Shown here one piece after another: positions 698 through 35,881 of a stretch of DNA of 35,881 bases. The DNA comes from a virus (Duplodnaviria > Heunggongvirae > Uroviricota > Caudoviricetes), in the IMG/VR virus record IMGVR_UViG_2541047915_000013. The stretch is one strand, 5' to 3'. Both the position numbers and the translations under genes were made by a program. The notes beneath the pieces are model-generated. The model had not been told where the DNA came from and did not search any database. It saw nothing but the letters and a program-made list of their open reading frames with translations. Position 1 is the stretch's first letter, and each line of letters starts with the position of its first letter.

Positions 698-1060
698 GGG
701 GCTGATTCTGGATTCGACGGGATTTGCGAAACCCAAGGTGCATGCCGAGGGGCGGTTGGCCTCGTAAAAAGCCGCAAAAAATAGTCGCAAACGACGAAAA
801 CTACGCTTTAGCAGCTTAATAACCTGCTTAGAGCCCTCTCTCCCTAGCCTCCGCTCTTAGGACGGGGATCAAGAGAGGTCAAACCCAAAAGAGATCGCGT
901 GGAAGCCCTGCCTGGGGTTGAAGCGTTAAAACTTAATCAGGCTAGTTTGTTAGTGGCGTGTCCGTCCGCAGCTGGCAAGCGAATGTAAAGACTGACTAAG
1001 CATGTAGTACCGAGGATGTAGGAATTTCGGACGCGGGTTCAACTCCCGCCAGCTCCACCA
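698..1060 (+). ncRNA. ssrA: tmRNA (transfer-messenger RNA), 363 nt
   Basis: Starts GGGGCTGATTCTGGATTCGACGGG and ends CGCCAGCTCCACCA; internal tag template GCAAACGACGAAAACTACGCTTTAGCAGCTTAA (787-819) encodes ANDENYALAA-stop. Confidence 0.95.
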
Positions 1061-1061
1061 A
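1016..1061. repeat. attL core: 46-bp direct repeat formed by the ssrA 3' end
   Basis: ATGTAGGAATTTCGGACGCGGGTTCAACTCCCGCCAGCTCCACCAA is identical to 35254-35299; identity breaks on both sides. Confidence 0.85.
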
Positions 1062-1183: not shown

Positions 1184-1666
1184 ATGGAAGAACTTCACTT
1201 TGTTTACATCAATGCAAATGGTCGTATCGGTGTTCACTCAATACAGAGCATCAGTTATAGCGAAAATCATATACAGGGCATTTGTAAGAACACCGATCGA
1301 ATAAAAACCTTCCGAAAAGACCGCATTCTTAAACAGTACGATTCACCAGAACAAGCCATTCAGGAATGCGCGTCATTCCTCCCCGAAAACTACTCACATC
1401 TCACTAAGCAGTCTGGTCCGAAAAAAAATACATTCGATGTGTGCTTCACCGGATTTAAGAAAGCAGATAAAGAAAGATTGGTTGATAAGGCGAATGAACA
1501 AGGATTAACGGTAAGAACCTCTGTAACCCAAAGCCTTCAGATGCTCTGTTGCGGTTACAATGCAGGCCCATCAAAAGTATCGGCAGCCAGGATGAAAGGC
1601 ACAATCATCATAGATGAGCCTGGCTTTATACATTTTCTTGAAACGGGTGAGATCCCAGATGAATAA
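1184..1666 (+). CDS. Hypothetical protein, WYL-like N-terminal domain fused to BRCT-like C-terminal domain (accessory gene)
   Basis: N-terminal FVYINANGRIG...RIKTFRKDRI resembles the WYL motif; C-terminal CFTGF...ERLVDKANEQGLTV...GPSKVSAARMKGTIIIDE resembles a ligase-type BRCT domain; good RBS. Confidence 0.6.
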   Translation: MEELHFVYINANGRIGVHSIQSISYSENHIQGICKNTDRIKTFRKDRILKQYDSPEQAIQECASFLPENYSHLTKQSGPKKNTFDVCFTGFKKADKERLVDKANEQGLTVRTSVTQSLQMLCCGYNAGPSKVSAARMKGTIIIDEPGFIHFLETGEIPDE

Positions 1667-1692
1667 AAACCTGCCGTAGCAGGTTCTCTTTC

Positions 1693-1911
1693 TCAAAAAT
1701 TCATATGCCCCTGACCACCTGGCAATGGATGTGGAGGGGCTGTAGCAATCAATGCAGGTGTCACAATAAACCGGACCACTGTTTCATGGGTAACAAAAGT
1801 GCTCCCGCAGTTAATATTTTGGCACTGGCAGTAACGCTCTTTGGTGCTTTCTGTTACTTGAAAACTGCTCCTTGTGTGCGCCGCATGACCACACTTCGGA
1901 CAATTCATCAT
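1693..1911 (-). CDS. ogr: Late-gene transcriptional activator, Ogr/Delta zinc-finger family
   Basis: MNCPKCGHAAHTRSS...ERYCQCQNINCGSTF matches the Ogr C4 zinc-finger pattern; the ORF extends to 1956 but the internal ATG at 1911 gives the 72-aa size typical of Ogr. Confidence 0.85.
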   Translation of the reverse strand: MMNCPKCGHAAHTRSSFQVTESTKERYCQCQNINCGSTFVTHETVVRFIVTPALIATAPPHPLPGGQGHMNF

Positions 1912-1979
1912 ATCCAGATCCCTACCTTTGCTATCAGAATCATTGTAATGATACACAAAATATCAATATTGAGAACACA

Positions 1980-3080
1980 TTATTCCATTTCAAGATCATC
2001 AATCTTCACTTCGAGTTCAATACTGGTTGTAAAACCGTTATCCGGGCTGACGGTATGTGTCAGAGTCGTAATGGTCCATTCCGCATCATCTATCGGCTGT
2101 TTAAAGCCACTGACTTTCACTGGCATTTCCGTGTAGAGATCTGCCCGACCTTCCGCCAGTTGTAGCGAGAATGACGCAACGCCGCGTTGCAGGCGTTCCC
2201 ACTGCATTTTCGCTGCCCGTTCAGCGTTGTTCCGGTTGGCATAAGTGCGATTAAGTACCAGCACGTTTTCATCCGTACCCACCAGGTAATCGCCCTGCTT
2301 CGCTTCCGGCTCTTTCTTCTGCTTTGCGGTCCTGCGCTTACGCTTCACCGTGGTGCTTTCTTTCTTCACGGGTTCGCGGGTATGCAACCAACTGGCAATT
2401 ACCCCCGTATAGGCTCCGCGATCTGCCAGGGTAAAGCGGTGACTGTCGCCGTCCTTGCGTGTGATAGTGATCACCGGCAGAGGTTTACCGCTGGCGCTTT
2501 TGCCCTGTCCCTGCCGGATGAATAACAGATTGCCATTTTTCACCGACGCAATAGCACCGTACTGGCGCGCCAGCCGCATCAGAAAACTGCCGTCACTCTC
2601 ATTGGTCTGGTCTATATGTTCCACGGGCTTATCCGACAGGTCTTTACCCAGTGCCATCTTCAGCTTGTGCCGCGCGGCTATTTCCTTCACCACTTCCCCG
2701 ACGGTGGTCTTGTGCCACGATTTTTCACGGCGGGTATTCAGCGTTTCCCTAAAATCAGCACTTCGCGCCCGGATAGTCAGGCGATCCGGTGCGCCAGTGT
2801 GTTCAATCTCGTCCACCGTGAATGCCCCTTTCGGGAAAAGCGGCTGCCCCTTCCAGCCCAGCGCCAGCGTGATGACCGCACCACGGCGCGGCAGCACGAT
2901 TTTTCCGTCGGCGTCGTCCAGCTCCAGATCAAGCTGGTCTGCTTCAAAGCCCCGATTGTCCGTCAACGTCAGACTCATCAGGCGGTTATCCAGCACAGTG
3001 GTGATATCCTTCCCCTCAATACTGATGCTGAATGCGGGAGTTTTGTTGCCTTTGTTAAGCAGTTCAGAGCTGAAATTCAC
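1980..3080 (-). CDS. D: Tail protein D (late control gene D)
   Basis: 366-aa ORF with P2 gpD-like sequence; position directly upstream of ogr. Confidence 0.9.
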   Translation of the reverse strand: MNFSSELLNKGNKTPAFSISIEGKDITTVLDNRLMSLTLTDNRGFEADQLDLELDDADGKIVLPRRGAVITLALGWKGQPLFPKGAFTVDEIEHTGAPDRLTIRARSADFRETLNTRREKSWHKTTVGEVVKEIAARHKLKMALGKDLSDKPVEHIDQTNESDGSFLMRLARQYGAIASVKNGNLLFIRQGQGKSASGKPLPVITITRKDGDSHRFTLADRGAYTGVIASWLHTREPVKKESTTVKRKRRTAKQKKEPEAKQGDYLVGTDENVLVLNRTYANRNNAERAAKMQWERLQRGVASFSLQLAEGRADLYTEMPVKVSGFKQPIDDAEWTITTLTHTVSPDNGFTTSIELEVKIDDLEME

Positions 3081-3562
3081 GACAGCAGCCCTCCCACCGT
3101 TTTACTGATATCGCTTAAGGCAGACGTTGCCGTATCCTGCAAATTATTCAGCTGCGCACTGAGATCACCGAACATATCGGACAGGGATTCATCCACACGT
3201 TTGAGCGACAGGGTAAACTCAATCCGGCGCGGCATACCATCGCGGAAAAACTCCGTTTTAGTCTGATTCAGTCCCTCAATCACATACATGCCGTAAATCG
3301 TGCCGCTGCCTTCAATCAGGGGCCATGCTTTTCCCTGTTCTGCCATCTGCTCCAGAGCCAGCAACGACAGCCTGCCGCCCGTTATCTCCGGCATAAGAAC
3401 ACCAGAAAGCGTCAGCATGTCGTTGTCCGGTCCCAGAAACTGCGTGGACGGACGACGGTTTACCCGGCTGTTTGCCGCATGTCGCCAGCTGCGTTGATAC
3501 TGCAGTTCCTGATACGGAACGGTGCTCAGCATAAACACGTACAATCCCAGCACCATCATCAT
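3077..3562 (-). CDS. U: Tail protein U
   Basis: 161 aa; 4-bp overlap with D and T; P2 gene order. Confidence 0.85.
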   Translation of the reverse strand: MMMVLGLYVFMLSTVPYQELQYQRSWRHAANSRVNRRPSTQFLGPDNDMLTLSGVLMPEITGGRLSLLALEQMAEQGKAWPLIEGSGTIYGMYVIEGLNQTKTEFFRDGMPRRIEFTLSLKRVDESLSDMFGDLSAQLNNLQDTATSALSDISKTVGGLLS

Positions 3563-6500
3563 GCGTCGTATCCCCCCTGATCGCTGTAGTTACTCCTGGC
3601 TTTTGCCTTCAGCCTGCGTTCACGTTCATCAAGCTGGCGTGCCACCTCCCGCGCAATATCCTGCGCACTTTGTCCTGGCTGCGTCTGAATGATGATCTGC
3701 GTCGGTGCCTCAATCCGGTGAACGGGCGGCACAGTGGCTGCACGACTCACCATCGCTTCGCCGCCTTTCGCGGGAAGTGCCAAAGGATGCAACGGTGGAA
3801 GCTCTGCAGGCGCGGCAGCAACGCCCATCATTCCGGCAACAACGGCAGCCAGTGCAGCTGTATTTCTCCGGCTGGTCACATTTGCCGGGCCGTTAACAAT
3901 TTCCGGCCCGTTTTCACCGACGATGCCAAACTGCCCGCGCGGGATATAGCCGCCGCTGTCATACATCCCCGCAAAGCCATATCCCCATGACGGAAAACCA
4001 CCCGATGGCATCATCACTTTACCGTCTGCATTCACCGTCGCAGGTTGCTGACGCGTCACTCTTTCCGGCAGTTTCGCCTTTGCAGCCTCTTTACTGACAA
4101 TGCCGAGTTTTTCCAGCAACCAGGAAACGCTGGATTTCAGGGAGTCCAGCGGATGCATGACCATATTCAGCCCTTCCGCCAGTGCCTCCCCGAATCGTCG
4201 CCCCATTGCCGCTGCGCTCTGCAGTTCGGCAGAGGTCGACTTAACGGGCGTCAGCAGATCAGTAAACCAGCCCCACAACGCCTGCACTTTGTCGCCAATC
4301 CACTGAAACACAGGCTTAAGTGGTTCGAATGCTGCACTGATGGGACCTGCCGCCGCTTTGAATCCTTCCACCACACCAGCGAGAAATGCGGTGATGGGTT
4401 GCCAGTATTTCCAGACAACCAGCGCCACGCCCGCCAGTGCAGTAACCACAAGACCTATCGGACTGAGCAGAGCACCTAACAGACCAGATATGGCATACAG
4501 GGCAACGCGCAGCATCGCCAGCGGACCGGATGCCAGTACTCGCAGCACCGAGCCTGCGGCAGCCAGTCCACCGCGTAGTGCCGCCAGTGGATTCATAAAC
4601 ATCACAGCAACAGCACGTAAACCGGATAATCCAGACCGCAACAGTGCAACCGGCACAACTGCTACAGTTTTCAGGACATTCCCCGTCAGTGATGCCGTGC
4701 GGCGCAAAGACGACAACGGCGCAGTAAGTAAACCCGCTGCGTTGCCCGATGAAGCAAGCCCGCGTCGCAGCAGTGCCAGTGGAGCGCCAGCTAACCAGGA
4801 CAACGCGCTGCTGGTTCGTGTTACTGCTGCCGTAACGGAAGATAACGTTTTGATACCCAGCACAGAGAATCCCAGACGGATGACTGCCAGCGGCCCCAGC
4901 ACTGCAGCCAGCGCCACCGCTAAGGTGCCGAGGCCTACGGTAACCGCAGCCACAATAGCGGCTACTTTCATCAGTGTGCCCGTCAGTTCCGGGTTAGCTT
5001 CCACCCAGCGACGCAACGCTCCCGTAACACTTTTCACCGTGTACAGAATATCCATCAGCGGCTGGCGCAGCGTTTCGCCCAGGCTACTGAAGGTGTTCTG
5101 CGTTCCGGTTTTGACCAGCAACCACTGAGCAGAAAGTGAGTCTTTGTTGATGTCGGATTCTTTCTGCATGGAACCGAGCGCATCATTGCCCGCTGTCAGT
5201 TTTAGCTGGCGCTGCAGTTCCGGCAGGTTGTTTGCCAGTTTCGCCGCGTCATCGCCAAACTCTTTGCCAAACAACATGGTCATGGCAGACAGACGCTTGT
5301 CCTGCGGCAGCGCGTTCACCTTCTCCAGCACACGCTGGATAGTTCCCATCGCATCCTTCGTCATCTGCTTTTCAATCACTTCAGGATTGAGTTTCAGCAG
5401 ATTCATCCCTTCAAAGAAACTCTTGCTTTGCATGGTGGCAATGGACAATTCACGCACCATCGCGTTTGCTGCACTGGCTGCAACCTCCGGCGCAGCGCCC
5501 AGTGTCAGAAAGGTGGAACCCAGCGCCGCCGCTTTACGATAATCCAGACGGTCAGCCACACCGCCCAGACGTTGCATGACATCAATAATGTCTGCCCCTT
5601 TCGACATGGCGTTATCATCCAGATAGTTCAGCGCATCACCGAGCTGTTCAATATTGCGGGTAGGGATTTTGTAGAGCTGGGCGATTTTCCCCAGACTTTC
5701 TGACAGTTCATCCGCTGGCAGCTCAAAGGCTGTTGCCGCCTTTGCTGCCGTACTGGCGAAGGCCAGCAGGTCACGTTTCTGGTCTTCCCAGCTGTCGTCA
5801 GGGTTTGCGACGTTCATGCGCGCACCACCTTCAACCAGTGCAGCGAAGTCTACCGCACCGTTTTCCATCGGCAACTGTTCGCTGGCAGCCTTGATGGCAT
5901 CCTGCATTTCATAAAAACGTGCAGTGCGGTTGCCATTATCGTCACGCAGACCATTGACCTGCTTTGCCACACCTTTCATGGCATCTTCCATGCTGGTATA
6001 GCTTTTTACTGCCGCCATCACTGGCGTCCCCATTGCCAGCCCTGCCGCCGTGGTGGTGGCTCCTGCTCCTGCGATGCGATCGCGCACCTCCAGCGAACGG
6101 GCATAACTGGCACGCGCCACATTCATCCTGCGCTGAGCTTCCCCCAGTCGCTTCAGCCGCGCCTCCTGTTTCGACAGTTCCTGGTTATAACGTGATGTTT
6201 CACGGGCTAAACGGGCAGTTGCTCCCGCATCATCTTTCGCAGAAATTCCCGCCCGGTACAGTTCAGCACGCACAAGCGCCGTTTGCTTCTGCAAATATTT
6301 TTGTTGTTCTTCCAGACGTTGGACTGCCAGCGTTTGCCGACCTAAAGCCACAAGATGCCTTTGTGATGGTTGTTCCATCGCCTCCAGCTCAGAGCTAAGC
6401 AAATTAGCCTTCTGTCTGGCATAGTTCAGCCTGTCGCCTAACTTCTTGTTATCGGCCTGCAGCTTGCGAAATTTTTCCAGGCTGTTACCCGCCTGATTGA

Positions 6501-22459: not shown

Positions 22460-23890
22460 TCATCTTGAAAGTATCACCCGTTCAAACAATGGCATTAATT
22501 GAGAATAAACATTATCATAATGTTCATCATTTAAAAGATGATATTTATTTTCAAGTTTGATGCTATTAAAACCATCCATGAAACTCTCATAACCAACAGT
22601 GCCAATAATAATCTGATTTGTAAGGGAAAACCCATCCAAGCATAGTTTTATAAGCTTATGCGTATGCTCTGGATCCAAATCTTGTTGCTTTGGAGAGTCT
22701 ATTACTATAGGCATATTCTCAACTGAAGAGTTGCTTTTCATAACACTAAGTAGCGCGTAGTGAAATGCAAATATACCTCGAGGACCTCGACTACCAGTCT
22801 TACCCTTAGTAATATTATTATAACTACTAAGGCCACCTACCTTTGTATTTTCGACACCAAGCTCTTTAAGAGCTTTAGCGAAATACTCTTTGAAACAGTC
22901 ATTTATTTTAACAGTTCTTTTCTTATCATTGTATACTTCTAATTCTTCTTGTAATTCTGTCAACTCGCCTTCTTTTCGACCAATCTCAACGAATAACTCA
23001 TCTAACTGTGAAACAAAAGTAGATTCAATTTCATGGTATGCAGCAGATTTAATAACATCATGAAGCGTTATTTCCGATTGAGTTTCTAAAATCAGCGCCT
23101 GCAACGCCTCTGAAGCAGCCCTTGACTCTTCTAGCTTTTGATTCAATTTAGGAATATTTTCCTCAATCTTGCTTTTCTCATCTGCAAGAACAGCAATGTT
23201 TTTGAGCATTTCATCTCTATGGTTTATATAATTATATTCATTTACTGAATAAGCAACATTATCATCTCGAAAATTCGAAATCTCAAATTCATTATCAATA
23301 ATCGCAGTTATCTCTTTGAGTTCACTCTCAAGGAAATTCTTCCTAGAATATAACCTCAAAAGATTCAATCTATATTCTGTCTGAACTAAATTCAAATTAG
23401 AATATTCATTTAATATACGTTCTAACTTTGATTTATAAAAATCCAAATCAACATCAAATAAAACCACACCAAAAGATTCATCAATCTTACTTTTGCTTCT
23501 TTTTAGAACCTTAACAAAACCATCTAACTCTGAAATTTTAACTTTAACTTCTTTGATTTTCCCTTGAACTGTGTAATATTCCTTTGGCTTAATTCCAGAG
23601 TGATAGTAAAGAATGTTTTTTTGCCATTCTGAGTACATACTCATGTTTTCGAAAGAATTTATCACCGCTTTCCATCCTTCATCCTGATCAATAAAGAATG
23701 GGGCAAACAAACAAGCAGGGTTTGCCTGAGTCGTAGCACCCGTATATTTATTATGTAATTCCAGTTTAAAACCAAATATATTTGAAACACGAGATGCTAA
23801 TGACGAAATCGTGTTATACACGACTAGATCATCATTCTTCAAATCAAAGACACCAATAATCTTTTTATAACGCAAAAAAAATAAAATCAC
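22460..23890 (-). CDS. SMC/ABC-type ATPase, C-terminal part (LmuB/DUF3732-like), separated from its P-loop by a frameshift
   Basis: Long coiled-coil region, then PIVIDSP (Walker-B-like) and DPEH (H-loop-like); no Walker A in this ORF; about 30% GC. Confidence 0.6.
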   Translation of the reverse strand: MILFFLRYKKIIGVFDLKNDDLVVYNTISSLASRVSNIFGFKLELHNKYTGATTQANPACLFAPFFIDQDEGWKAVINSFENMSMYSEWQKNILYYHSGIKPKEYYTVQGKIKEVKVKISELDGFVKVLKRSKSKIDESFGVVLFDVDLDFYKSKLERILNEYSNLNLVQTEYRLNLLRLYSRKNFLESELKEITAIIDNEFEISNFRDDNVAYSVNEYNYINHRDEMLKNIAVLADEKSKIEENIPKLNQKLEESRAASEALQALILETQSEITLHDVIKSAAYHEIESTFVSQLDELFVEIGRKEGELTELQEELEVYNDKKRTVKINDCFKEYFAKALKELGVENTKVGGLSSYNNITKGKTGSRGPRGIFAFHYALLSVMKSNSSVENMPIVIDSPKQQDLDPEHTHKLIKLCLDGFSLTNQIIIGTVGYESFMDGFNSIKLENKYHLLNDEHYDNVYSQLMPLFERVILSR

Positions 23891-24134
23891 TTTCCCCGTT
23901 ATTAATTTCCACCAGTGTAACTATATCATCTGATTTCCAAGCATCATCAAGCCTTAAATCTCCACCTAATGTGTAATAAAGACTTTTAATCAGGCTTGAT
24001 TTACCAACATCATTTGTACCATATATGAAGTTAACCCCTTCTGAAAACTCATAAGAAAAAGCTTTTCTGTCTCTTAATGAGAGTATTTTTATATTTTTAA
24101 ATTTAACGTTATTCTTCATAAGAAACATCCTCAA
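23865..24134 (-). CDS. SMC/ABC-type ATPase, N-terminal P-loop fragment
   Basis: Walker A GTNDVGKSSL; frame ends inside a T8 tract where the downstream ORF continues in the +1 frame. Confidence 0.6.
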   Translation of the reverse strand: MRMFLMKNNVKFKNIKILSLRDRKAFSYEFSEGVNFIYGTNDVGKSSLIKSLYYTLGGDLRLDDAWKSDDIVTLVEINNGESDFIFFAL

Positions 24135-25188
24135 AAGTCAACTTTATAATTGCATATATAGCAATCATAAATTTCTCTTCTTGATTTAATAAAGAGAAAT
24201 CCCCGTCCCCCGCTGCAATTGTTTTTTCGAGTGTAAAGAAGAGGTCTCGAACAGGTATCTCACGATAATGCTCTATACTCTTTAGAGCCGATTGAAATTC
24301 CAGAAAATAAAGATAGTATATTGAATTGACATTGAGCACTTTTATTGATATGCGTGTAAAAACTGATTGTAATTTAATCCCCTCATAAGGATCTGAGAAA
24401 GTACCAAGCAACATACAAACCTGTTCCCATTTTGGCGTTATTTTTATGCTTGCAATGAGTCCAGATAATAAATCAGTTACAAATTCTGAAGATATACCTT
24501 TCTTTAGTACTAAATCTTCAAAAGTTTTGATATCACTAGAAGCAACACTAACCTTCTCATTACACTTATTGATTAATAATTTAGTGAATGCTGTTGAATT
24601 AATACCATGATCATCCCCAAAGTAAGAATTCAAAAAAACTGCAACTTTCCCGTATAAATGTGAGTTAGGATCTAACAAACTAAGATCAGATGTTTTAAAT
24701 TTTATTTTATCAAGAGGAACTTCTTTTTTAGTATTTAGCTGCTCTTGAACCTTACTAATTATAATTTCCTTATGCTCATTATTAAGATCACTACCTTTTT
24801 CGTTATTATCATTTAAGAAATCGAATCCAGCATTCGATAACAGAACCATATAAATTTCGTGACCAACGAATTGATAGAAATGGTCATATAGTTTTGCAAC
24901 AAATGATTTAGGTTTAGCTTTTGTTGCGTTCACTATTGCTGCGAGTGTCCATTTACCATCTTTTTTTGTTTTAACTTGGATAAACTCAGCACTAGTCGGA
25001 GAAACAGATGAATTCAATACAAGAATATCGTCATGATATTCAAATAGAAATAAATATTTCTCCTTTTCTTTTTGTTTCTCAAGTAAATAATTTATCCCCC
25101 AAGAGGCTTGATATGAAAAGCCTCTCAACGCGTTTTCACCGCCCCGTTCTGCTTGATTTACTGTAATTAACGCATCTGATAACGCCAC
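24109..25188 (-). CDS. PD-(D/E)xK nuclease-like protein of the Cap4/DUF4297 type (LmuA-like)
   Basis: N-terminal GGENALRGFSYQ ... YHDDILVL ... EFIQVK motifs; GTG start with AGGGA ribosome-binding site; about 30% GC. Confidence 0.55.
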   Translation of the reverse strand: MALSDALITVNQAERGGENALRGFSYQASWGINYLLEKQKEKEKYLFLFEYHDDILVLNSSVSPTSAEFIQVKTKKDGKWTLAAIVNATKAKPKSFVAKLYDHFYQFVGHEIYMVLLSNAGFDFLNDNNEKGSDLNNEHKEIIISKVQEQLNTKKEVPLDKIKFKTSDLSLLDPNSHLYGKVAVFLNSYFGDDHGINSTAFTKLLINKCNEKVSVASSDIKTFEDLVLKKGISSEFVTDLLSGLIASIKITPKWEQVCMLLGTFSDPYEGIKLQSVFTRISIKVLNVNSIYYLYFLEFQSALKSIEHYREIPVRDLFFTLEKTIAAGDGDFSLLNQEEKFMIAIYAIIKLTFEDVSYEE

Positions 25189-25497: not shown

Positions 25498-25731
25498 TTA
25501 ATGCAGCCAGCTGTCGTCTTCCCACACCTTCTGCATAATTTTCATCACTTGTTTTCTTTCTTCGTCCTGTTGCAGTCCGGTCAGTTCCACACCGTTAGAG
25601 CTACCTTTGCGGATACGAATTACCGTTTTGGGATACAGGGAGCGCAGATTGCGGTAAAGCTCGGATTCAAGGGCGTCCATGGTAGACTGGCTAATCTTCT
25701 GCTCTTTATCGATCATTATTTCAATGCGCAT
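25498..25731 (-). CDS. DinI-family protein (DNA-damage-inducible protein I-like)
   Basis: MRIEIMIDKEQ...LESELYRNLRSLYP...VWEDDSWLH resembles DinI; start set at the internal ATG at 25731; the ORF is open to 25803. Confidence 0.7.
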   Translation of the reverse strand: MRIEIMIDKEQKISQSTMDALESELYRNLRSLYPKTVIRIRKGSSNGVELTGLQQDEERKQVMKIMQKVWEDDSWLH

Positions 25732-25741
25732 AAAAGTCACC

Positions 25742-25930
25742 TCAGCTGATGACATCCATTGAGCGGTTGTATTCGTGGGTTCTGATTTTTGCCATGAGTT
25801 CATCAGTCAATTCAGAAACCCACTGCAGAGCCAGCCCCTTATCTTCATCACTACACTCACTAGCCGCTACAAGCTTAAGAAAAAAATCAATGCGCTGGAG
25901 CTTCAAAGACTCCAAAAAATAGTCCTGCAT
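25742..25930 (-). CDS. Hypothetical protein, first gene of the LexA-box operon
   Basis: ATG at 25930 preceded by AGGAGG; LexA box about 45 bp upstream. Confidence 0.5.
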   Translation of the reverse strand: MQDYFLESLKLQRIDFFLKLVAASECSDEDKGLALQWVSELTDELMAKIRTHEYNRSMDVIS

Positions 25931-31293: not shown

Positions 31294-31926
31294 ATGATAC
31301 AGGTAAAGGTTGGAGAGAATACAGGGGGAAGAGAGGCTATCCATAGACTAATGGCAGCCTATGATTTCAAGTCCAGACAGCAACTTTGCGATCACTTAGG
31401 CGCATCAAAAAGTACCATGGCAAACAGATACTTAAGAGATAGTTTTCCTGCAGAGTGGGTGATTCAGTGCGCCTTGGAAACAGGAGTTTCTTTACTGTGG
31501 CTAACCACCGGACAGGGGGAGCCAGGTCCAAACATTGAACCTAAAAAAAATATCAATTCCGTGAACTCCAGCAAGGTTGTACCTCTTTCTGAACTAGTAT
31601 CTCCTGAAATTGACAAGGCGACTCTCAACGGTGGTTTATTGGTCGATGCTGGAAAAGCAATCATTGATAGCAGCATACTCCCCTCAGACTCAAGCAACCT
31701 ACTGCTGGTGACTACTTCTGGTGATTCTTATTTAATAGATCGCAACCAAACACCACCAGTAAATGGTATGTGGTTAGTCGATATTGACGGGATAAAAAGC
31801 ATTGTTAAATTGACTCGACTTCCGGGAAACAAATTAGTAGTGCATCAGGATGATTCATCGTTTGAGTGTGGCCTAGATGACATTGAGGTAGTAGGCCGCG
31901 CACTGAAAATCATTAAGAGCCTTTGA
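31294..31926 (+). CDS. cI: CI-like immunity repressor
   Basis: 210-aa protein with N-terminal helix-turn-helix-like region; co-oriented with int. Confidence 0.7.
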   Translation: MIQVKVGENTGGREAIHRLMAAYDFKSRQQLCDHLGASKSTMANRYLRDSFPAEWVIQCALETGVSLLWLTTGQGEPGPNIEPKKNINSVNSSKVVPLSELVSPEIDKATLNGGLLVDAGKAIIDSSILPSDSSNLLLVTTSGDSYLIDRNQTPPVNGMWLVDIDGIKSIVKLTRLPGNKLVVHQDDSSFECGLDDIEVVGRALKIIKSL

Positions 31927-31927
31927 T

Positions 31928-32944
31928 ATGACCATCAGAAAACAGCCGAACGGAAAATGGTTGTGTGAGTGCTATCCCAATGGACGCAATGGTAAGCGCG
32001 TGCGTAAGCAATTTGCTACGAAAGGCGAAGCCATTGCTTTTGAAAGCTTCACAATGGAAGAAGTGAATAAAAAACCGTGGTTGGGTGAAAAGGATGATCG
32101 GCGACGCCTATCAGAATTAATTGAGCTTTGGTATTCCCTGTATGGTCAGACACTCGCAGACCCCAAGCGCCTCATGGCGAAACTTAGAATTATCTGTAAT
32201 GGTCTAGGCGACCCCATCGCCTCAGAACTGACAGCCGGTGACTTTACGAAATACCGCGAAGCACGGTTAAAAGGTGACGTTCGTAACGAAGACGGCACAC
32301 TAATGTCGCCAGTAAAACCACGCACGGTGAATCTTGAGCAACGTAACCTATCATCGGTTTTCGGCACATTGAAAAAACTAGGCCACTGGTCAGCACCAAA
32401 TCCTCTCGCCGGGCTGCCAACATTTAAAATCGCTGAGGGGGAACTGGCGTTCCTGACCTCGGAAGAAATTAAACGTCTGCTAGATGCCTGCGCTGATTCT
32501 CAAAACCCCAGTCTGCTTTTGATTGCAAAAATATGCCTGGCCACCGGCGCACGCTGGAGTGAAGCTGAAAACCTGCAGGGCCATCAGTTATCTAAATACC
32601 GCATCACTTATACCAAGACGAAGGGTAAGAAAAACCGCACCGTGCCGATATCTCAAGATCTGTATGACGAACTCCCCAAGAACAGAGGGAAGCTATTCAC
32701 CCCGTGCAGAAAAGCCTTTGAACGAGCAGTAAAGCGAGCTGGCATCGAGCTGCCAGAGGGCCAATGCACTCACGTGCTACGTCATACATTCGCCAGCCAT
32801 TTTATGATGAATGGCGGAAACATACTGGTGCTGCGCGATATTCTGGGCCATGCCGATATAAAAATGACGATGATTTACGCCCACTTTTCGCCCGATCACC
32901 TTGAAGATGCGGTAACTAAAAACCCTTTATGCAACTTAAGATAG
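31928..32944 (+). CDS. int: Tyrosine integrase (P2/186 family)
   Basis: 338 aa; ...ATGARWSEA..., ...HVLRHTFASHFMMNGG... and ...MIYAHF motifs typical of P2-type integrases. Confidence 0.9.
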   Translation: MTIRKQPNGKWLCECYPNGRNGKRVRKQFATKGEAIAFESFTMEEVNKKPWLGEKDDRRRLSELIELWYSLYGQTLADPKRLMAKLRIICNGLGDPIASELTAGDFTKYREARLKGDVRNEDGTLMSPVKPRTVNLEQRNLSSVFGTLKKLGHWSAPNPLAGLPTFKIAEGELAFLTSEEIKRLLDACADSQNPSLLLIAKICLATGARWSEAENLQGHQLSKYRITYTKTKGKKNRTVPISQDLYDELPKNRGKLFTPCRKAFERAVKRAGIELPEGQCTHVLRHTFASHFMMNGGNILVLRDILGHADIKMTMIYAHFSPDHLEDAVTKNPLCNLR

Positions 32945-33260
32945 AGTAACTTATGAAAACAAACTCAAACTATTTACAAATATAATATTCAGCAGGTTAT
33001 CCATTCTCATTTAACTCTTCAGACTGAGTTTAGGTTTTATTTATAGAATAAGATAATTTTTACATCACAAAAAAACCTATAAGCCCTCATCTTTGTTGTA
33101 TAAAAACATCAAAGATGCCACATTCAAAAATAGTAGAAAAGCATAGCATTGCAACATTAAAAAGAAACCAATAAAAAACAGTCATTAGAAAATGAAAAAA
33201 ACAAAAACATTTTTTATCGAAGCTTCAGTCTGACTACTAGTTTGACTCTGCAATTAACTT

Positions 33261-33290
33261 TCAAGATGATCAATATTTATTGATCATCTT
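33261..33290. repeat. Perfect 13-bp inverted repeat (hairpin) carrying two GATC sites
   Basis: CAAGATGATCAAT-attt-ATTGATCATCTTG, 35 bp beyond the deaminase stop. Confidence 0.7.
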
Positions 33291-33324
33291 GAAGCTTACC
33301 TCAGGAAGGATGAGTATAATATTT

Positions 33325-35058
33325 CTACTCAAGGAGATATTCTAACTCATCTTTTATCGGGATAATTTGCTCATAAAGTCGGTGATATGACTTCCCAATT
33401 GCGCCTCTAAATTGTATTAACTTTGGTGGCTTACTACCTATATTAATAATATGGTCTTGAGCTATACCTGGGTAGGGATCAATAAATACAATTTCAGATA
33501 TACCTAACTGATAAGCTTTTTTCGCACACAACTCACAGGGACTGGCAGTTGTATACAACTTCCCCCCCAGAACGCCAATACCACCATATTTTGCAAGTTG
33601 CAAAAATGCGTTTTCCTCAGCATGTAATGCACGTGTATGAACTTGATTACCTTTTTTCTCTTTATCAAGATCATTATGTATATCTTTAAAACAATAAGAT
33701 AAGTTCCTGCCTCTATAAATATCACCAGTTTTATCTATCGCCCTAAAATTTAAGAGTTTCTCATTAGCTTTAATTCTGAAAGAACTATTATTTCTCTCAT
33801 AATGACTGTACGTTTTTTCATCAAAATCGTTCATTAGGCCATCTAGAGATCTCATAGAGCAAGGAATCTGACCGTTGGCAACATCATTCCAACCAACTGA
33901 TTTTATTGAATTATCACCATCAGTTACTACAGCTCCCACCTGTCTAGATATACAGCCAGAGTTTAATTTTACCGTATACGCAACTTGCATAACCCTTTCC
34001 ATTGCAGTAGGTGTTATCAGACCAGGATGCTTCATCAGTGCGATGTACCACGCTAATTGTGCTTTTAAAATATTGTCATTATCAAATTCATTTTTTGGGT
34101 TAAAAATGTGTATATCTGATAGTTCAATACATTTAGTTACATTTGGATTGGTGAGATGTTTGTAAGAGTTATCACCTTTACCTGACTCTACAGAATCTAT
34201 TTCCTCTATCTGCTTTTCTGAAAACTTATGTAGTTTCCGCAAATAGTTTGTTCGATGTTCATCCGGGGCATTTATTGACATTAAATGAAATGCAGAATAT
34301 CTATCCTTAAAAAATTTTGCCTCATATGGATTTCTAATAGCATCTATGACAATTAATGCGTTATCTCTTTTGCTTTTTCTTATTAATTTAATAACCCTAT
34401 TAATAGTTTCCGGCAAATGAAAAACAGATTTAGGCATAAACTCTTTATCTTCAAAATCGACTTCAATACGCCCACGACGTCTAATTGACTTACCTGCTAA
34501 CTGATAGGCTGAAACATATAAATTTGAGTTTATCTCATTTAGTTCAGCTTTGAATTCTTTAGTAAATTTTCTAACTAACTTCAAAATTGATATAAATTTA
34601 TTAATCGTTTTTTCATCAAGCTTCAATTCACTATTATGATCAAGCAAATTCTCAATTACATTTTTAAATCTTGTCAAAATGAGATTATCTGAGAATACAC
34701 CAAAAGTTAATACAATATCTAAATGCTCTTTACTGATAGATTTATTAGATGATAGAATGAATTCAGAAGCTTCCTCAGCTGTTAACATCAGAAGATACGC
34801 TGAGATTAGGTCACTCACCTTAATTGAGTAAAAATTTTCCCAGTGATTTTCTGCGAATTTTTTAACTATATTATAACGATGGACATCCAATCCCTTGTAA
34901 AACCCCTGTAATTTACTTACATCAGGGAAGACTGTTTTTTCGTTTTCAAGAATATTAGCTGTTGTTGTGCAACCAGAACCAGTTCGACCTGTCAAACCGA
35001 CTAAAATAAACTGCCCATTTTCAAGGAAAAGCTCACTAACGAATTTTTTTTCTTTCAT
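33325..35058 (-). CDS. P-loop kinase-like / cytidine deaminase fusion protein (AvcD/dCTP-deaminase-like accessory gene)
   Basis: N-terminal P-loop GRTGSGCTT; C-terminal deaminase zinc motifs HAEENA and SPCELC; ATG at 35058; about 30% GC. Confidence 0.7.
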   Translation of the reverse strand: MKEKKFVSELFLENGQFILVGLTGRTGSGCTTTANILENEKTVFPDVSKLQGFYKGLDVHRYNIVKKFAENHWENFYSIKVSDLISAYLLMLTAEEASEFILSSNKSISKEHLDIVLTFGVFSDNLILTRFKNVIENLLDHNSELKLDEKTINKFISILKLVRKFTKEFKAELNEINSNLYVSAYQLAGKSIRRRGRIEVDFEDKEFMPKSVFHLPETINRVIKLIRKSKRDNALIVIDAIRNPYEAKFFKDRYSAFHLMSINAPDEHRTNYLRKLHKFSEKQIEEIDSVESGKGDNSYKHLTNPNVTKCIELSDIHIFNPKNEFDNDNILKAQLAWYIALMKHPGLITPTAMERVMQVAYTVKLNSGCISRQVGAVVTDGDNSIKSVGWNDVANGQIPCSMRSLDGLMNDFDEKTYSHYERNNSSFRIKANEKLLNFRAIDKTGDIYRGRNLSYCFKDIHNDLDKEKKGNQVHTRALHAEENAFLQLAKYGGIGVLGGKLYTTASPCELCAKKAYQLGISEIVFIDPYPGIAQDHIINIGSKPPKLIQFRGAIGKSYHRLYEQIIPIKDELEYLLE

Positions 35059-35253
35059 CACGTCCCACTTATGAATGCAAGAACAATTAACATATTAATT
35101 GTAATTTATTAACTAATTTTATTCTAGATACTTGATGTAATGGCGGCACTTTGGCGGCAGAGCATTAAAAACGCGTAAGACGAGCAAATACAAAATAACA
35201 CTAACACATTGTTTTCAAACATAATCTACTGTTTTTACTATAATAAAAATGGT

Positions 35254-35299
35254 ATGTAGGAATTTCGGACGCGGGTTCAACTCCCGCCAGCTCCACCAA
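35254..35299. repeat. attR core: second copy of the 46-bp ssrA 3'-end repeat
   Basis: Exact copy of 1016-1061; not a second tmRNA gene, only the terminal 46 bp. Confidence 0.85.
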
Positions 35300-35428
35300 T
35301 CATGATTGGACGGTGTAAGGACAACACCAACAAAAACAGGAAGTTAGAAGTCTCAGCAGGACACCGACCAGACGGTGAGGAGACATAAAAGGATACGCAA
35401 AGGAGCCGCGGCTCCGAAGTGAAATGAA

Positions 35429-35452
35429 AGCCCGCTGATGCGGGCTTTTTTG
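35429..35452 (+). terminator. Rho-independent terminator in host flank after attR
   Basis: AGCCCGC-tgat-GCGGGCT followed by TTTTTT. Confidence 0.55.
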
Positions 35453-35881
35453 CTTCTTCTCTTTAGCCTGATTCGACACTCTCAATGCGGCCATAAACAA
35501 CAACCCACTTTTCTTATACCGTAGCCTGTCCCCCTCTTCCTGCTTTCTAACCATAACAGATGTGAGCGTTTGCTATGAGCGATATATAGTCATTCGTACC
35601 CTCCGATACTAATCATCACAGAAATTAATATATTCATTCCTTACTGAAAAGCTATGAAGTAGATATATAGGATTGGGGCGCGTATGGCACTGGACAGTTA
35701 TGCATCTCCGAATATTATTCCGGAGCTAAGACAACCGAATGCCGCAGCAGGTAAGATCACGCTAGGGGGGCTGGACAGAATGGCTGTTACGCCCAGTGTG
35801 AAGAAAAGAAGGCTAAGTATGGTAGAATTTCCATACGCACAGACCTTGTTATCCGACTATACAGCCTGGAAGGCACTATGA

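Follow-up and report, generated by a model that had tools for sequence, protein, structure and literature searches.

Two anti-phage deoxycytidine triphosphate (dCTP) deaminases of Escherichia coli, those of strains U09 (577 amino acids, aa) and AW1.7 (576 aa), have had their genes cloned and are both described as "validated experimentally" (Tal et al., bioRxiv 10.1101/2021.04.26.441389). Here we compare with them a gene on the minus strand, at positions 33325–35058, of a 35,881-nucleotide (nt) stretch of viral DNA (IMG/VR record IMGVR_UViG_2541047915_000013), the whole of which we call the window. The gene is very probably an intact copy of an already characterised anti-phage dCTP deaminase, carried as prophage cargo. 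The gene family, the allele, the enzymatic mechanism and the cargo slot were all published before, and the locus has little significance beyond its correct annotation.

Together with its native upstream DNA, the U09 gene protects E. coli MG1655 from several phages, and the defence range of AW1.7 is broader than that of U09 (bioRxiv 10.1101/2021.04.26.441389). When cells carrying the AW1.7 gene are infected with T7, dCTP and the corresponding di- and monophosphates (dCDP and dCMP) are lost and deoxyuridine monophosphate (dUMP) goes up within minutes, with ribonucleotides untouched (bioRxiv 10.1101/2021.04.26.441389). Defence by AW1.7 is abolished by G29A and C30A and lost when C370 and C401 are changed to Ala, and mutating these four residues ends dCTP depletion as well (bioRxiv 10.1101/2021.04.26.441389). 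T7 mutants that escape are altered in gp5.7, which inhibits the host RNA polymerase (bioRxiv 10.1101/2021.04.26.441389), suggesting that the enzyme is switched on by tampering with host transcription.

Identity of the gene and its family

The protein encoded at this locus is 100% identical to WP_021565872.1, the RefSeq "anti-phage dCTP deaminase" of E. coli FDAARGOS_1337, and NCBI holds the exact sequence on 33 contigs under the anti-phage dCTP deaminase name. The first-pass annotation had placed a 577-aa two-domain protein here, and the open reading frame (ORF) is found where it was claimed to be. RefSeq starts the protein at the ATG at 35058, which gives 577 aa; the ORF as a whole (33325–35061, minus strand) counts 578 aa from an in-frame GTG one codon upstream of that ATG, at 35061. 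The features of the gene are:

33325–35058, minus strand: coding sequence of the anti-phage dCTP deaminase, 577 aa, ATG start at 35058
34024–35058, minus strand: N-terminal nucleotide-kinase-like domain with a phosphate-binding loop (P-loop), residues ~1–345
34963–34998, minus strand: deviant Walker A GLTGRTGSGCTT, residues 21–32, with Cys30 where the canonical Lys sits
34327–34350, minus strand: Walker-B-like strand VIDAIRNP, residues 237–244 (translation checked)
33409–34011, minus strand: zinc-dependent dCMP/cytidine deaminase C-terminal domain, residues ~350–550
33859–33954, minus strand: stretch between Cys400 and Cys369, the equivalents of AW1.7 C401 and C370
33616–33624, minus strand: HAE, residues 479–481, with His479 as a zinc ligand and Glu481 as the catalytic proton shuttle
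33526–33540, minus strand: PCELC, residues 507–511, with the zinc ligands Cys508 and Cys511

The NCBIfam equivalog NF041025, "anti-phage dCTP deaminase", matched the protein with 425.4 bits (trusted cutoff, 400 bits), covering profile positions 1–437 of 437, and the PADLOC dCTPase model PDLC02373 matched at 1.7e-145. Passing both models supports the proposal that the gene has the architecture of the AvcD-like or dCTP deaminase defence proteins. The deaminase domain, for which a profile search had been suggested as a check, was matched by Pfam dCMP_cyt_deam_1 at residues 353–525 (E = 1.6e-14). The traits that Tal et al. used as a criterion, namely a length above 350 aa, an N-terminal kinase-like P-loop and a C-terminal zinc deaminase domain, are all present in the window protein.

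Which allele the gene represents is indicated by its upstream DNA. The start of the U09 construct (its first 399 nt) is the reverse complement of window positions 35062–35450, at 97.2% identity. Against the FDAARGOS_1337 locus, which encodes a protein 100% identical to that of the window, the identity of this part of the construct is 99.5%. Given this match and the common length of 577 aa, we infer that the window gene is a U09-type allele. The shared upstream DNA includes the att copy, a prophage attachment site derived from ssrA, but the window flank past the right-hand site attR (35300–35881) differs from U09, because the chromosomal neighbourhood of ssrA varies between strains.

The AW1.7 enzyme (WP_045268677.1) has the same two-domain architecture and also passes NF041025. 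Full-length alignment with the window protein gives 72% identity, and every position that Tal et al. mutated is conserved, with the same numbering for G29 and C30 and with C369/C400 standing for C370/C401. The agreement with characterised dCTP deaminases that was anticipated from the sequence is therefore borne out at the residue level. The genomic settings differ, in that the AW1.7 gene lies in an integrase-bearing island at tRNA-Phe and the window gene in a P2/186-like prophage, and the non-coding DNA up- and downstream of the AW1.7 gene is unrelated to that of the window.

Within E. coli the allele group is rare, being present in 20 of 5426 complete genomes, and 38 of the 44 matching blastn records are annotated either "anti-phage dCTP deaminase" or "deoxycytidylate deaminase". 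Most related prophages do not have the deaminase gene, and there are prophage-free genomes in which ssrA runs directly into the right flank of the window. Genes of the dCTP deaminase family were found in a prophage cargo slot, a tRNA-Phe island, a Vibrio integron cassette and a small plasmid. In Vibrio vulnificus, a 68%-identical homologue (3001–4734 of its locus) is surrounded by short, repeated ORFs of 30 codons and a gene for a ParE toxin, a context that looks like a chromosomal integron cassette array and would be a third vehicle besides prophage slots and small plasmids.

Conserved residues and alternative functions

Invariance was judged in an alignment of 35 homologues. Walker A residues 21–31 are invariant in 35/35, with Thr32 nearly so, and the same is true of the whole of VIDAIRNP, which is presumably the Walker B motif. 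Also invariant are H479, E481, C508 and C511 of the deaminase site, together with G29, C30, C369 and C400, the counterparts of the AW1.7 residues required for defence. In phmmer alignments, HAE and PCELC fall on the HAE/PCxxC of the dCMP deaminases of T4 and cyanophage S-TIM5, and Cys400 and Cys369 fall on Cys49 and Cys19 of the T4 enzyme. The HAE and PCELC motifs singled out in the first-pass annotation are thus real, and neither the catalytic Glu nor any zinc ligand, whose absence would have spoken against the assignment, is missing from the alignments.

In a fold model, the N-domain was like a nucleoside monophosphate (NMP) kinase and the C-domain like a dCMP deaminase. Searches of the PDB by sequence and by fold returned no full-length solved homologue; the matches were single-domain deaminases and kinases. 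The closest solved structures for the C-domain were phage and cellular dCMP deaminases, T4 Cd among them, and the N-domain resembled deoxynucleoside monophosphate (dNMP) and NMP kinases, including the T4 dNMP kinase (1dek). In addition, tblastn against phage genomes matched T4-like cd genes.

Such similarities would be in keeping with a phage metabolic gene, that is, a fusion of a T4 Cd-like dCMP deaminase and a dNMP kinase that raises the precursors of deoxythymidine triphosphate during lytic growth of the prophage. We regard this as highly improbable. The phage tblastn matches are limited to the deaminase core, at ~30% identity, whereas the full-length architecture scores above the curated cutoffs of the defence family, and a cloned allele of this type confers defence on its own. 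An invariant Cys replaces the Walker A Lys, which argues against ordinary phosphotransfer. Finally, the base composition of the gene is foreign, and its location is a variable cargo slot that belongs to neither the conserved replication module nor the conserved late module of P2/186; most related prophages lack the gene.

A housekeeping orthologue was considered as well. The dCMP deaminases of known structure, such as T4 Cd (1vq2), human DCTD (2w4l), the ComEB-type enzyme of S. mutans (2hvv) and PBCV-1 bi-DCD (7fh4), share the fold, HAE and PCxxC with the window protein, and housekeeping and phage dCMP deaminases also share the two Cys residues found at positions 19 and 49 of the T4 enzyme. 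However, these enzymes are single-domain proteins of 140–190 aa without an N-terminal kinase-like domain, as opposed to the 577 aa of the window protein. The ComEB equivalog TIGR02571 scored just 36.3 bits, far under its cutoff of 219 bits. With this score, the length, the extra N-domain and the status of a rare accessory gene, we rejected the housekeeping reading; given the count among complete genomes, the gene does not behave as a housekeeping orthologue resident at this locus in prophage-free genomes.

A gene of this kind could also be an inactive relic, a decaying piece of cargo in a defective prophage. LmuB, part of the other defence cargo of the same prophage, appears frameshifted, and the FDAARGOS_1337 copy of the deaminase gene sits in a degraded prophage. 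Against decay stand the full length of the deaminase ORF, the intact state of every invariant family residue and the occurrence of the identical protein on 33 contigs. Moreover, a 97%-identical allele differs by 14 substitutions, all outside the invariant residues of the family (0 within them), which points to purifying selection. We therefore give the relic reading very little credence, and an intact dCTP deaminase remains the preferred one.

Mechanism, silencing and non-coding DNA

Our analysis covers the identity, domains, motifs and genomic position of the window gene; enzymatic activity and trigger are taken from the published work on U09 (defence) and on the 72%-identical AW1.7 (dCTP depletion, mutants and T7 gp5.7 escape). 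On this basis, the gene would provide a single-gene nucleotide-depletion defence of the U09/AW1.7 clade, as a moron that a 186/P2-like prophage, integrated at ssrA, carries in its integrase–att slot. Within the lysogen, the enzyme would be made from its own promoter and held inactive, the leading model for keeping it off being a labile AvcI-type RNA, as in AvcID of Vibrio cholerae. Activation would come with infection by a lytic phage that interferes with the host RNA polymerase or host transcription. The zinc deaminase (His479, Glu481, Cys508 and Cys511) would then convert dCTP, dCDP and dCMP to deoxyuridine nucleotides, so that the dCTP pool is emptied and phage DNA replication stalls. The enzyme would also need its N-terminal kinase-like domain with the Cys P-loop, probably to bind nucleotides or for regulation.

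With every catalytic and essential residue in place, the window enzyme presumably carries out the same chemistry, and by analogy with its characterised relatives it may well shield the lysogen against lytic phages. The prophage that carries the gene would itself be expected to tolerate it, since P2/186-like phages depend on the host RNA polymerase without shutting it off.

How such an enzyme is kept silent has been described for AvcID. In V. cholerae, AvcI is an abundant, labile small RNA, located immediately upstream of avcD and co-transcribed with it, that inhibits AvcD post-translationally, and its decay is the switch (Hsueh et al. 2021/2022; PMC10511110). AvcI is needed to silence the AvcD enzymes of V. 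cholerae, V. parahaemolyticus, P. mirabilis and E. coli H10407, and the AvcI homologues have no sequence similarity to each other (Hsueh et al. 2021/2022; PMC10511110).

AvcD/AvcI (also DcdV/DifV; V. cholerae VSP-1 and p58 of enterotoxigenic E. coli H10407) and the window protein have much in common: the family NF041025, the architecture of a P-loop kinase-like domain plus a HAE/PCxxC deaminase, and the published chemistry (dCTP and dCMP to deoxyuridine nucleotides) and defence logic. They differ in length (~530 aa for AvcD, 532 in H10407 p58, versus 577) and in the P-loop (GLCGFAGCGMKT in AvcD versus GLTGRTGSGCTT in the window protein). H10407 AvcD, the sole strict AvcD compared, is just 26% identical to the window protein over 364 residues, confined to residues 228–572. 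The label "AvcD-like" that the gene had been given thus holds at the level of the family, but not in the strict sense of AvcD; judged by sequence, H10407 AvcD belongs to a different clade from the long clade of U09 and AW1.7.

The non-coding DNA around the gene is made up as follows:

35059–35140, minus strand: module-specific upstream region of 82 nt, containing a candidate promoter read from the sequence
35141–35253, no strand: att arm with two TGGCGGCA repeats (at 35141 and 35152)
32945–33324, no strand: AT-rich non-coding spacer (GC 0.27) between the convergent integrase and deaminase genes

The att arm is 80–84% conserved in related prophages without the deaminase, and also in one that carries the 72% allele. 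As these 113 bp before attR are common to prophages without the gene, they belong to the phage att arm. The two TGGCGGCA direct repeats, 11 bp apart (35141–35161), are kept in related prophages with different or no cargo and are probably arm-type binding sites of the integrase. The window, AW1.7/Citrobacter freundii and Vibrio alleles have no detectable similarity in their upstream DNA outside close relatives; what is conserved there comes down to the att core, the arm repeats TGCCGCCA and a handful of bases by the start codon.

In the module-specific 82 nt, the sequence suggests a candidate promoter, with a −10 element TACAAT at 35098–35103 (TATAAT in the Citrobacter and CV839-06 alleles) and a weak −35 element TAGAAT at 35121–35126.

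The gene might be one half of a two-part type III toxin–antitoxin system of the AvcID type, in which an RNA encoded within 35059–35300, in the same orientation as the gene and possibly overlapping the att arm, silences the deaminase and decays when a phage shuts off transcription. In the characterised systems, silencing requires AvcI, which is encoded immediately 5' of avcD and transcribed together with it; in H10407 p58 it is found just upstream of avcD, in or near a small ORF (2618–2803). Both H10407 AvcD and the window protein pass NF041025, the functional U09 construct included ~390 nt of upstream DNA, and T7 escape through an RNA polymerase inhibitor fits a labile-transcript model. Since AvcI homologues are dissimilar, a similarity search would be expected to miss one, and a null result of such a search is not evidence that AvcI is absent. 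On the other side are the low identity to H10407 AvcD and the fact that the AW1.7 construct, which defends, had just 83 nt before its ATG; nor was a small upstream ORF like the 61-codon one of H10407 p58 found in the window. All in all, we consider a two-part system of this type rather unlikely here.

Several observations weigh against the overall account of a silenced U09-type enzyme. The deaminase domain had mediocre confidence in the structure model, and the identification with the U09 allele draws on upstream DNA and length. A consensus promoter scan did not flag the candidate promoter, whose match to the consensus is weak. Rfam, at the gathering threshold and at E ≤ 1, returned the att-derived fragment of transfer-messenger RNA (tmRNA) and chance-level matches, with no AvcI-like RNA, and the 272 nt upstream of the gene folded no better than shuffled sequence (z = +0.78). 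Lastly, the upstream DNA internal to the prophage amounts to 195 nt, of which 113 nt are att arm, shared with prophages without the gene, and 82 nt are specific to the module. The Rfam result, the folding result and the shortness of this DNA speak against the two-part AvcID reading as well. An 84-aa ORF at 35300–35554 (minus strand) was also considered as an AvcI-like small upstream ORF and rejected, because it lies outside the prophage, in the ssrA flank of prophage-free genomes.

As a tentative alternative, the 576–577-aa clade of U09 and AW1.7 may be restrained without a separate AvcI-type RNA, either through autoinhibition by the kinase-like domain with its Cys P-loop or through a signal in its own short leader or coding RNA. 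Restraint of this kind would fit the 82 nt of module-specific upstream DNA in the window and the functional AW1.7 construct with 83 nt. If it were so, these enzymes would sense interference with RNA polymerase in another way than in the AvcID paradigm of V. cholerae. The residual novelty of the locus lies in whether, and how, the long clade is silenced without a recognisable AvcI, given so little upstream DNA.

Downstream, a hairpin with a 17-bp stem (~33258–33297) directly follows the stop codon of the deaminase gene and is a probable transcript end or stabiliser. The 380-nt spacer that contains it is structured (fold z = −3.2). As an essential regulatory RNA, however, the spacer was rejected, since it is without counterpart in other alleles: its place is taken by 9 nt in E1433, by 15 nt in the Vibrio integron cassette and by a 208-aa gene at some Citrobacter-type loci.

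Prophage context and neighbouring cargo

The first-pass annotation had located the gene between int and attR and had called this a second cargo position. Both statements proved right, as can be seen from the landmarks of the prophage:

698–1060: ssrA (tmRNA), intact
1016–1061, plus strand: attL, at the 3' end of ssrA
31294–31926: CI repressor
31928–32944, plus strand: tyrosine integrase (Pfam Int_N, 1.8e-29; Phage_integrase, 9e-25)
35254–35299, plus strand: attR, a 46-bp copy of the ssrA 3' end, 46/46 identical to 1016–1061 and a partial tmRNA match

Perfect repeats stand at both ends, and the 34-kb interval is therefore a prophage integrated at ssrA. Its genes include those for the replication protein gpA, a portal protein, the CI repressor and the tyrosine integrase, all of the P2/186 type, and the segment 25200–32950, from gpA to the integrase, is ~94% identical to P2-like Klebsiella phages. 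The deaminase coding sequence has a GC fraction of 0.331 and its module one of 0.318, well below the values of the prophage (0.50) and the late genes (0.557), in agreement with the strong AT-richness noted at the outset.

In all five inspected copies of the allele group, the window included, the gene adjoins the same prophage int and CI genes. The int–att slot is variable between prophages. In E1433 it is occupied by the 72% allele and in CFSAN061761 by an unrelated 408-aa gene, and it has been published as a minor defence hotspot of P2-like phages.

The other AT-rich slot of the prophage (22460–25188, minus strand, GC 0.32) is filled by a Lamassu defence pair, in the classic gpA–portal hotspot of P2. 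The window thus offers a natural case in which a P2/186-like prophage equips its lysogen with two defence cargos: the int–att slot holds a dCTP deaminase and the gpA–portal slot Lamassu. LmuA is encoded at 24109–25188 (PADLOC, 4e-143; Pfam Cap4_nuclease, 1.4e-33) and LmuB at 22460–23890 (PADLOC, 1e-208). LmuB seems to carry a frameshift: the first ~86 codons, with the Walker A motif GTNDVGKSS among them, lie in another frame (23866–24124, minus strand), and there is an indel at 23874, one extra A in a poly-A run relative to the intact 552-aa copy of E. coli 23CRST028. This may reflect a sequencing error, a pseudogene state or phase variation of the tract.

Beyond attR, positions 35300–35881 are the native downstream flank of ssrA, with a rho-independent terminator at 35426–35449. 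Only some E. coli genomes match this flank as a whole; beyond 35450, other genomes that carry the prophage have ypjA or another integrase island instead, indicating that ssrA is an integration hotspot with multiple occupants.

Between the Lamassu cargo and gpA lies a gene for a DinI-like protein (25498–25803, minus strand; Pfam, 5.8e-23). Just inside attL, at 1184–2136 (plus strand), a stretch of lower GC holds two small ORFs of 160 and 143 aa. The 160-aa ORF has no Pfam match and a weak match to the PADLOC candidate PDC-S48 (1.8e-7), and the stretch may be a third cargo position, beside the other att site.

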